Below are positions 1 through 1,355 of a DNA stretch of 13,993 nucleotides, in pieces; the stretch's first letter is position 1; every line of letters begins with the position of its first letter. The notes under the pieces are model-generated. The model ran no database searches and was not told the origin of the DNA. It saw only the letters and a list, made by a program, of their open reading frames with translations. Position numbers and translations under genes: made by a program. Origin of the DNA: a virus (lineage: Duplodnaviria; Heunggongvirae; Uroviricota; Caudoviricetes); the IMG/VR virus record IMGVR_UViG_2654587792_000016; one strand, written 5' to 3'.

Positions 1-30
1 TCACTGTCGGCGAAGGTAAGTTGATGACTC

Positions 31-507
31 ATGATGAACCCTGTTCCATGGCTCCAGATGACAAACATGATCTCATATCAGGGACTTGTTCGCACCTTCC
101 ATAGGCGTGCTGGCCTGATTTTGTGGAGAAAGTTGATGCGTGATATTCAAATGGTTCTTGAACGTTGGGGGGCATGGGTGGCAAATAATCACGAGGATGT
201 GGAATGGTCATCTGTTGCTGCAGGTTTTAAGGGATTAATTTCTTCGAAAGTAAAATCCCGCCCGCAATGTAGCGATGACGATGGCCTGATCATTAGCTCT
301 GCGATGACAGTTCTTAAGAAAAAGGAACCGTATCAATACGAATTACTGGAAATGTATTATGTGTATGGGGTTACATTACGGGCGTTGGGGGTAAAACTGG
401 GGATATCACTTAATCAGGTTGTTATCAGACTGCAGAAAGCTGAAGGGTTTATTGACGGTTGTCTGGCAATGTTGGGGGTATCTTTAGAAATTGATTGTTA
501 CATATAG
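31..507 (+). CDS. Q: Late-gene antitermination protein Q (Q82/QuuD-like family)
   Basis: 158-aa ORF with ATG ATG at 31-36 and TAG at 505-507. The stretch MRDIQMVLERWGAW...VAAGFKGLI...RPQC.DDDGLI..SAMTVLKK matches what I recall of E. coli prophage Q/QuuD antiterminators. It sits directly upstream of the cargo slot and lysis cassette, as Q does in lambdoid phages. True start (31 or an internal Met) is uncertain. Confidence 0.8.
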   Translation: MMNPVPWLQMTNMISYQGLVRTFHRRAGLILWRKLMRDIQMVLERWGAWVANNHEDVEWSSVAAGFKGLISSKVKSRPQCSDDDGLIISSAMTVLKKKEPYQYELLEMYYVYGVTLRALGVKLGISLNQVVIRLQKAEGFIDGCLAMLGVSLEIDCYI

Positions 508-541
508 TAATAAATTCAATCAAAGTAAATAATCATATTTT

Positions 542-584
542 ATAATAACCTCCTGATGATACCTGTTCATTGGGAGGTTATTAT
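542..584 (+). promoter_or_regulatory. 12-bp perfect inverted repeat (ATAATAACCTCC-N19-GGAGGTTATTAT) spanning a TATAAT hexamer, the Shine-Dalgarno and the start codon of the downstream CDS
   Basis: Read directly: 542-553 ataataacctcc is the exact reverse complement of 573-584 ggaggttattat, with a 19-nt spacer. The right arm holds GGAGG (573-577) and the A and T of the ATG at 583-585; the left arm contains an anti-SD-like CCTCC and overlaps a perfect TATAAT at 541-546. It is either an RNA hairpin sequestering the ribosome-binding site or a DNA operator for a dimeric protein. Confidence 0.5.
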
Positions 585-1200
585 GGATAAAAATGTAGAG
601 CATGTATTAGTTGATGCAATTGAAAATAAGCAATCTTTAACAGTCGTTTACTTAGGAGGGAGCCAGCCCGGAACATTAAGGAATATTTCTCCGATTAGTA
701 TAAATGGGGATAAGTTGCGGGCAAGATGCCATAGTTCTGGAGCAGTAAAGGTTTTCAATCTTGGGAAAATACAGTTACCCAGTAACTCCTGCGCGGTATC
801 TATGCACTATGGAGATTTAGAAGTTAAAGCTTATGAGACGATGCAGAGCGTAAATGACAACTTTCATGCCCTTTATCCTGAAGGACGATGGGGTGTTGAT
901 TTTAATGAGCATCGCTTTGCTTTATTTGATTTTTTTAAAAACGGGAAACGAAAAAAAACGGCATTTATGGCAATTGAGTTCAGGGAAAGAGATGAAGAGA
1001 AAATAATAACAGGTGTAACAATTGATATTGGTATATCTGGAACAGTGATTTCTGAGAAATCCCGAATCCCAAAAAGACGACCATGGGTAGTGGTTGGTCC
1101 CGAACACGGAGAATACAGTACTTATTCAACTTTGGACAAGGCTGCTACAGCGTTTTTTGAGAGACTTTCGTTGATAGCATCCGGCCTGGAAGATAATTGA
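583..1200 (+). CDS. Hypothetical protein, 205 aa, AT-rich cargo (moron) gene between Q and the lysis cassette; N-terminal third loosely WYL/SH3-like; function unknown
   Basis: ORF 556-1200 in the track; preferred start is ATG 583 because GGGAGG at 572-577 sits 5 nt upstream. Stop TGA 1198-1200. The region is visibly AT-rich compared with the flanking phage genes. Residues about 15-70 (SLTVVYLGG...TLRNISPISINGDKLRARCHSSGAVKVFNLGKIQL) have an alternating hydrophobic/basic pattern reminiscent of WYL-type beta-barrel domains; this is pattern recognition only. No HTH or catalytic motif recognised. Confidence 0.6.
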   Translation: MDKNVEHVLVDAIENKQSLTVVYLGGSQPGTLRNISPISINGDKLRARCHSSGAVKVFNLGKIQLPSNSCAVSMHYGDLEVKAYETMQSVNDNFHALYPEGRWGVDFNEHRFALFDFFKNGKRKKTAFMAIEFRERDEEKIITGVTIDIGISGTVISEKSRIPKRRPWVVVGPEHGEYSTYSTLDKAATAFFERLSLIASGLEDN

Positions 1201-1329
1201 TTTTATGTTTGGTATTCAGAGTTCGCCGTGCTTAAGAAAGTCAAGATTCTAAAAATACTGAATGAGCTACTTGTGTTATAACAAAAATGCTATTAGTGTG
1301 TTAAGAGTGGTTACTTCGCCACACAACTT

Positions 1330-1355
1330 AAACCCGCCACTGAGCGGGTTTTTTG
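1330..1355 (+). terminator. Rho-independent terminator after the cargo gene
   Basis: Stem acccgc (1332-1337) pairs with gcgggt (1344-1349), loop cactga, extendable by A-T pairs at 1330-1331/1350-1351, followed by a T run at 1349-1354. Confidence 0.6.

Follow-up and report, generated by a model that had tools for sequence, protein, structure and literature searches.

The stretch of DNA analysed here (13,993 nt, hereafter called the window) comes from an E. coli lambdoid prophage. Its first part carries the end of a DUF968 gene, the antiterminator gene Q, a gene encoding a WYL-domain protein, a block of promoter-like and terminator elements, a short ORF and a DNA methyltransferase gene. Downstream of the latter lie holin, endolysin, Rz, terminase, portal and head genes. 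The features on which the present analysis relies are the following.

1-100, minus strand: end of an IS5 element (context only), interrupting the DUF968 gene within its final codons, 35 bp ahead of the start of Q
136-507, plus strand: antiterminator Q, Q21/933W family, 123 aa (PF06530, E 1.4e-47; phmmer against the solved phage 21 Q, E 2.5e-9)
539-587, plus strand: predicted 21-bp RNA hairpin around the Shine-Dalgarno sequence (SD) and start codon of the WYL gene (dG -26.9 kcal/mol, z -6.9)
572-577, plus strand: Shine-Dalgarno sequence GGGAGG, 5 nt upstream of ATG 583
583-1200, plus strand: coding sequence of the WYL-domain protein, 205 aa by translation (phrog_8498)
583-777, plus strand: WYL/Sm-like beta-barrel domain, aa 1-65, with the motif Y23-x-GGS27-x-PG-xx-R33
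820-1197, plus strand: C-terminal alpha-beta5-alpha sandwich domain, aa 80-205, with conserved FKNGK (118-122) and RPW (166-168)
1271-1308, plus strand: putative late promoter pR' (-35 TTGTGT 1271-1276, 17-bp spacer, -10 TAGTGT 1294-1299, -10-like AAGAGT 1303-1308)
1330-1354, plus strand: intrinsic terminator, AAACCCGC-CACTGA-GCGGGTTT plus T run, probably tR'
1453-1680: 75-codon ORF after the terminator (phrog_331)
1831-2883: N6/N4 DNA methyltransferase

The product of 136-507 is named 'antiterminator Q family protein' by PGAP. A longer ORF at 31-507 (158 aa) was rejected as an artefact, its frame running from the IS5 end into Q. This IS5 end is an insertion proper to the window: among the 44 related IMG/VR loci, it is found upstream of Q only in the window's own contig (L025), and the DUF968-Q junction is uninterrupted in L001. 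An IS5 end adjoining nmpC in a K-12-like genome matches positions 1-104 of the window at 98%. In the window's prophage, the insertion should disconnect Q and the WYL gene, and thus late-gene activation, from the early rightward operon, and this prophage may therefore be defective for induction.

Two observations concern the region past the terminator. The 75-codon ORF is the first gene past the putative tR' and is kept upstream of the methyltransferase gene in Stx phages. It bears a weak winged-helix signal of the MarR-like kind, and its homolog in O157 carries the annotation 'TrmB family transcriptional regulator, frameshifted'. Just past the methyltransferase stop codon, a strong terminator-like hairpin (2891-2907, GGCCACG-TTG-CGTGGCC then TTTTTATTT) falls within the holin ORF of the mechanical list, in its 5' part, so the true holin start is probably located downstream of it.

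Conservation of the WYL gene and its linkage to Q

The WYL gene extends from ATG 583 to TGA 1198-1200, as given in the preliminary description, and PGAP places the start of the same gene at the same codon in other genomes. The SD that had been attributed to it can be read in the sequence, 5 nt before the ATG. An alternative start at 556, which would yield 214 aa, was ruled out, as both the homologs and the PGAP annotation start at 583 and as the SD precedes 583.

The base composition of the gene is distinctive, but only on one side. Its GC content is 0.393 (39.3%), with a GC3 of 0.316, as compared to 0.524 +/- 0.027 in downstream windows of 618 nt, none of which is as low (minimum 0.445). The Q gene, however, has a GC content of 0.422. 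The AT-richness that had been noticed relative to the surrounding genes is thus confirmed with respect to the downstream region and does not hold with respect to the upstream neighbour; the low-GC tract is made of Q and the WYL ORF together.

The ORF is intact in 40 of the 44 near-identical IMG/VR viral contigs. The non-intact copies are three with premature stops (L058, L059 and L064) and one with an IS5 inside the ORF. IS insertions are present in L044 (~2463) and L063 (~2500): in one of them the loop of the SD hairpin contains the end of an IS1, and in the other the ORF is broken near codon 78 by the end of an IS5. The locus with IS1 in the hairpin loop keeps its ORF intact. When the ORF is compared to a diverged, 72%-identical copy, dN/dS is 0.24 at a dS of 0.77, and the gene is under purifying selection. 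The (near-)identical protein is found in 314 database sequences, under the names 'hypothetical' or 'WYL domain-containing', and the 72%-identical copy in 22 complete E. coli genomes. No confident match to a known phage housekeeping protein was found.

The WYL gene is tightly linked to Q. Among 5,426 complete E. coli genomes, this Q allele is present in 74 and the WYL ORF in 72, each being found with the other. In all 44 IMG/VR loci, the end of the DUF968 gene, Q, the gap, the ORF and the promoter-like/terminator block occur together, and it is the sequence further downstream that varies. Furthermore, dS between the two lineages is virtually the same for Q (0.80) and for the WYL ORF (0.77). This equal divergence, together with the constant co-occurrence, indicates that both genes have travelled together since the lineages split. 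As judged from these sequence comparisons, the WYL ORF was not acquired independently of Q. The gene had been described as an independently acquired and regulated module; its co-inheritance and co-divergence with the Q allele, the lack of a promoter-like site upstream of it and the backbone nature of the terminator behind it (see below) all argue against that description.

The slot between Q and the putative late promoter

The terminator located 3' of the WYL gene had been taken as the gene's own. It has a G+C-rich stem (1330-1337/1344-1351) followed by a run of six T, and belongs to a block of about 85 bp that is part of the phage backbone: block 1282-1355 is present in 3,692 of the 5,426 complete E. 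coli genomes, as against 72 for the WYL ORF, and it directly follows Q in phages devoid of the ORF. In the K-12 prophage DLP12, it lies between nmpC and essD. Besides the window, the block was compared in L002, L004, L005, L069 and L070. In these six prophages, the promoter-like hexamers, the AAGAGT element and the terminator are kept in the same register irrespective of what stands between Q and the block, namely the WYL gene (two lineages), a CPBP/Rce1-like protease gene, nothing, a reverse-strand 148-aa gene or nmpC. The slot is therefore variable in related prophages, being empty or filled with other genes in some of them, and the sequence immediately after Q is not conserved among the six.

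The sequence between the hexamers varies with the helix-turn-helix allele of Q, as would be expected if a Q-binding element were located there; in phage 21, the Q-binding repeats lie between the -35 and the -10 (PMC6606751). According to a published definition (10.1101/651190), a Q cassette comprises Q and, behind it, pR', a -10-like pause element and a terminator. From the constant register of the block, its Q-allele-dependent spacer and this definition, we infer that 1271-1354 corresponds to pR' plus tR', with the WYL ORF inserted between Q and pR'. The terminator at 1330-1354 is then probably tR' rather than an element of the ORF, and the pR'-tR' leader RNA would probably be only ~50 nt long.

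This arrangement bears on the position that had been assigned to the gene. It does lie between Q and the lysis genes, as proposed, but upstream of the conserved terminator block and hence not in the slot occupied by Shiga toxin genes; nor does its place upstream of the probable pR' fit the proposed expression from the late promoter. Stx-type cargo stands downstream of the late terminator, whereas the WYL ORF stands upstream of the block in which pR' and tR' are inferred. Phages carrying both genes illustrate this point. In JNE181771 and in O113:H21 FWSEC0010, the order is Q, WYL gene (72%-identical copy), a small ORF, the methyltransferase gene, three tRNA genes and stx2AB, so that in Stx2a phages with this copy stx2 is found ~2 kb downstream of the WYL gene. 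A UPEC strain has the same arrangement with an empty stx slot. The 72%-identical copy starts with GTG and corresponds to L003 4381-4998 and L065 4201-4818, in the Stx2 prophages of JNE181771 and FWSEC0010 (Stx2a). It is also present in O104:H21 and O43 strains, and in none of the deposited phage genomes of the phage collection.

The WYL gene resembles the lambdoid morons found next to Q, i.e., nmpC in DLP12 and the gene for a CPBP/Abi-type protease in O157 prophages. It occupies the same gap between Q and the block and, like them, is accessory, deviant in composition and present in only some phages; it thus combines the deviant composition and the patchy presence among related phages by which morons are recognised. 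It differs from autonomous morons in that neither a promoter nor a terminator of its own was detected, the sole terminator being the backbone element. It also differs in its orientation: it lies close behind Q, on the same strand, and has co-diverged with it, whereas nmpC and the PhiR40_1 gene have the opposite orientation.

The start codon of the WYL gene is overlapped by an inverted repeat whose arms span 542-559 and 567-584. The preliminary description had reported a 12-bp perfect palindrome over the translation start; the 12-bp perfect core does exist, but the whole is an interrupted inverted repeat with 7 nt between its arms. In the predicted RNA fold, the hairpin sequesters both the SD and the AUG. 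It is kept in the 79%-identical lineage (dG -21.6 kcal/mol, z -4.6), and more distant homologs are devoid of it. Across 5 variants, pairing is kept in 95% of the cells; one change is compensatory and five are one-sided, 5 sequences being too few for significance. The compensatory change is a U-A to C-G change coupled to the replacement of ATG by GTG. In Rfam, only sub-threshold matches were obtained, to STnc130 (minus strand, E 0.14) and fstAT.

A consensus scan of the plus strand upstream of the WYL ORF retrieved no sigma-70-like promoter, even though a weak or non-consensus promoter could escape such a scan. The hexamer TATAAT at 541-546 was considered as a -10 of the gene's own and not retained: it has no -35 partner, most copies read TATTAT, and its sequence is dictated by its pairing with the AT-rich spacer between SD and AUG. 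The simplest reading is that the WYL gene is co-transcribed with Q, that its translation is limited by the hairpin and that transcription stops at tR'. As for the effect of the hairpin, a functional analogy could be drawn with the fold-back or RNase III-type translational control of the IS10 transposase mRNA and the lambda N leader; as in these systems, the stem is long and perfect, and an upstream segment pairs with the SD and the AUG. By this analogy, read-through transcripts would give little translation as long as the stem is present and uncut.

Domain architecture and relatives of the WYL protein

An AlphaFold (AF2) model built on 91 homologs has a pLDDT of 86.9 and displays two domains. 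The N-terminal one is predicted to fold as an Sm/SH3-like, five-stranded beta-barrel preceded by a helix. The window's protein matches Pfam PF13280 (WYL) with 16.5 bits (E 0.0085), below the curated cut-off of 21.8 bits, and this profile is matched at E<=0.01 by 42 of the 91 family members, with a best E of 1.2e-5. When the family profile is compared to the PDB, the WYL domains of DriD, BrxR and CapW are retrieved at 1e-4 to 1e-2. In the alignment with the DriD WYL domain (~1e-4), 'VVYLGGSQPGTLRNISP' aligns with 'FRYEGGSTPGRTREVTP' following the pattern 'Y-GGS-PG--R'. The name given by PGAP alternates among genomes between 'WYL domain-containing protein' and 'hypothetical protein'. The WYL/SH3-like barrel that had been suspected in the N-terminal third is thus backed by both profile and predicted fold. 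Also in agreement with what had been proposed, neither Pfam nor the AlphaFold model reveals any helix-turn-helix, the protein beginning directly with its WYL domain.

The profile alignment gives clues on the possible ligand. Tyr168, Ser172 and Arg178 of DriD contact single-stranded DNA (ssDNA) (PMC9186387), and they correspond to Y23, S27 and R33; the equivalent of DriD Arg176 is T31. Y23, R33 and K56 are invariant in the 91 family members. The conserved positions of the family comprise seven K/R and several aromatics, and no D, E or H, in keeping with the absence of a catalytic motif noted earlier. This pattern of basic and aromatic residues without any acidic residue or histidine suggests that the protein binds a ligand rather than catalysing a reaction. 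ssDNA has been reported as the ligand of DriD, PafBC and CapW, and DriD also binds ssRNA, more weakly (PMC9186387). On balance, it is rather probable that the WYL protein is a non-enzymatic single-stranded nucleic-acid binder acting via its WYL surface.

The phage protein has a predicted WYL barrel of the DriD/CapW/BrxR type in common with the wHTH-WYL-WCX regulators (DriD, CapW, BrxR, PafBC), from which it differs at both ends: these regulators have an N-terminal winged HTH and a C-terminal WCX dimerisation domain, and it has neither. WYL1, the accessory protein of Cas13d, is a protein of ~390 aa with an N-terminal ribbon-helix-helix and acts together with a Cas effector whose gene is adjacent; the phage WYL gene, in contrast, has no conserved partner gene. 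A profile search with the C-terminal domain retrieved only the same architecture, WYL plus C-terminal domain, and no other arrangement. The full-length match in PHROGs is phrog_8498, and only families of unknown function were obtained there. NCBIfam has no family for the protein, PADLOC-DB 2.0 returned only weak generic 'WYL, CRISPR-associated signalling' models (E 0.0015 and 0.0085), and a Foldseek search of BFVD gave no match at E<=0.001. Literature searches retrieved no publication on the protein. It is a WYL-domain protein in a new, HTH-less architecture and otherwise an uncharacterised member of a known domain class.

The family is large. An exhaustive search yielded 482 clusters at 50% identity, nearly all of 185-210 aa and matching over their full length. 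Eight homolog contexts were inspected, and no conserved partner gene was found in them. In a Leucothrix mucor MAG (L014 1929-6946), a homolog with 39% identity is surrounded by FRG, GmrSD_N, HEPN (RiboL-PSP), glyoxalase and NERD-plus-zinc-ribbon genes, a neighbourhood that looks like a defence island. A 30%-identical one (L068 1-10756) is one cassette of an integron-type array with 14 attC-like repeats, which start with TAACAAA and end with GCGTTA; other cassettes of this array encode Phd/ParE, DUF4365, DUF2441, AbiTii and several acetyltransferases. Other homologs adjoin a Rha gene behind tail genes, lie close to a serine recombinase at the end of a prophage, or stand among unrelated genes. 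The homologs at 30-40% identity are not adjacent to Q, and their varied settings indicate that the protein works alone and moves as accessory cargo. Regarding variants of the architecture, a hydrophobic segment and a basic/coiled linker precede the WYL domain in P0134 and P0031, which suggests membrane-anchored forms, and P0137 and P0095 have a C-terminal extension of ~170 aa (phrog_31886) that matches only PHROGs of unknown function.

Possible roles of the WYL protein

All these results can be brought together in one tentative model, to which we give a probability of about 0.4: the WYL protein would be a stand-alone, non-enzymatic binder of ssDNA or another single-stranded nucleic acid, encoded by a gene of the Q operon and likely masking its ligand during lytic growth. 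The gene would be transcribed with Q from the early rightward operon, up to tR', and its translation would be restrained by the hairpin in which the SD and the AUG are buried. The protein would bind single-stranded nucleic acid, most likely ssDNA, via the barrel residues Y23, S27, R33 and K56. In DriD, ssDNA is clamped between the WYL and the WCX domain, and the basic FKNGK and RPW loops of the C-terminal domain could possibly clamp it in the phage protein. As the protein has a sensor domain and no output domain, it most likely acts by occupying or masking its ligand, and could be a sink for the ssDNA signal that is read by host WYL regulators and damage responses. Such a sink could in turn result in counter-defence or in a damping of the damage signal in lytic growth, which is the weakest step of the model. 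Two points weaken the model as a whole, namely the PF13280 score of 16.5 bits against a cut-off of 21.8 and the presence of T31 at the position of DriD Arg176. A third one is that distant homologs occur as independent units, in a defence-island-like locus, in an integron array with toxin-antitoxin and AbiTii genes, and near prophage ends. A decoy role is weakly favoured by the absence of an output domain in this sensor and by the operon-like position behind Q. Its most specific version, in which the protein soaks up the short ssDNA alarm of host WYL regulators (CapW-CBASS, BrxR-BREX, DriD/PafBC-like) and keeps inducible defences off during lytic growth, appears quite unlikely.

One alternative is that the gene is expressed in the lysogen and provides anti-phage defence or superinfection exclusion, the WYL domain sensing the ssDNA of an incoming phage or another nucleic acid and the C-terminal domain delivering the effect (e.g., a block of replication, or action on a host partner). 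Taken by itself this reading is on the unlikely side, but the company kept by the homologs and by the slot-mates makes it nearly as likely as the decoy role; the distant homologs away from Q, along with the porin and the CPBP/Abi-type protease as slot-mates, fit lysogen-expressed defence at least as well. The gene is AT-rich accessory cargo in a variable slot, and the NmpC porin and the CPBP/Abi-family protease are of the kind that typically serves lysogenic conversion or exclusion. GmrSD, HEPN, NERD and FRG genes surround one homolog, and another is a cassette of the 14-attC array with ParE/Phd, DUF4365 and AbiTii; some have divergently oriented neighbours, implying promoters of their own, and a few members have an N-terminal membrane anchor. 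The knock-out of 5 of the 44 copies by IS or stop codons would also fit a dispensable, possibly costly gene. What speaks against this alternative is the lack of any recognisable effector domain or conserved catalytic residue, the merely generic WYL models retrieved by PADLOC, the absence of a promoter-like site upstream of a gene whose SD is held in a -27 kcal/mol hairpin, and the tight, operon-like linkage to Q. This very linkage, i.e., strict co-occurrence and equal divergence with one Q allele, could instead suggest a developmental regulator tied to Q: an Sm/Hfq-like RNA-binding protein that would target the Q mRNA or the short leader RNA of pR', or tune the early-to-late switch. The weaker binding of ssRNA by DriD (PMC9186387) and the role of the pR' leader of other Stx phages as a functional sRNA that binds Hfq (PMC7547250) would be consistent with such a role. 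Its prospects are nevertheless slim. Homologs at 30-40% identity are found in bacteria and integrons without any Q nearby, so the function of the protein cannot depend on Q; related Q alleles work without the WYL ORF; and adjacent genes can stay linked simply through a lack of recombination between them.

The two remaining readings concern the gene itself rather than the activity of its product. The preliminary description had viewed it as an independently acquired cassette in a Stx-type slot of the late operon, under the control of pR' and Q and with its own terminator. The location between Q and the lysis genes, the deviant GC content and the terminator downstream do agree with this, but it has become very unlikely: the terminator and the promoter-like element are backbone components that directly follow Q in phages without the ORF, stx lies ~2 kb further down in phages that also carry the ORF, and Q shares both the low GC content and the dS of the gene. 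That the ORF is decaying or non-functional, as its premature stops in 3 of 44 loci and IS insertions in 2 of 44 might suggest, is largely refuted by the purifying selection acting on it (dN/dS 0.24 over a dS of 0.77) and by the breadth of the family, with motifs and length conserved over 482 clusters at 50% identity; the confident AF2 model also goes against decay. What stands of the first view of the locus is an accessory gene of unknown function, AT-rich, without catalytic motif and in a variable slot.

The WYL gene, as found, is thus an uncharacterised accessory gene, less self-contained than first proposed. If its product binds ssDNA without any output domain, it would offer a simple test case of how phages handle the ssDNA alarm in defence and damage responses. 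If the decoy role holds true, the family would represent a new class of anti-defence proteins spread across phages, integron cassettes and islands, and also located just upstream of the late promoter in the Stx2a phages of O113:H21 and O104:H21 STEC. The gap that separates Q from the probable pR' is, in E. coli prophages of the Q21 family, a variable cargo site, distinct from the Stx slot. In the Stx2a phages of LEE-negative STEC, this gap holds a diverged copy of the WYL gene, whose effect on prophage induction and toxin output can be tested.
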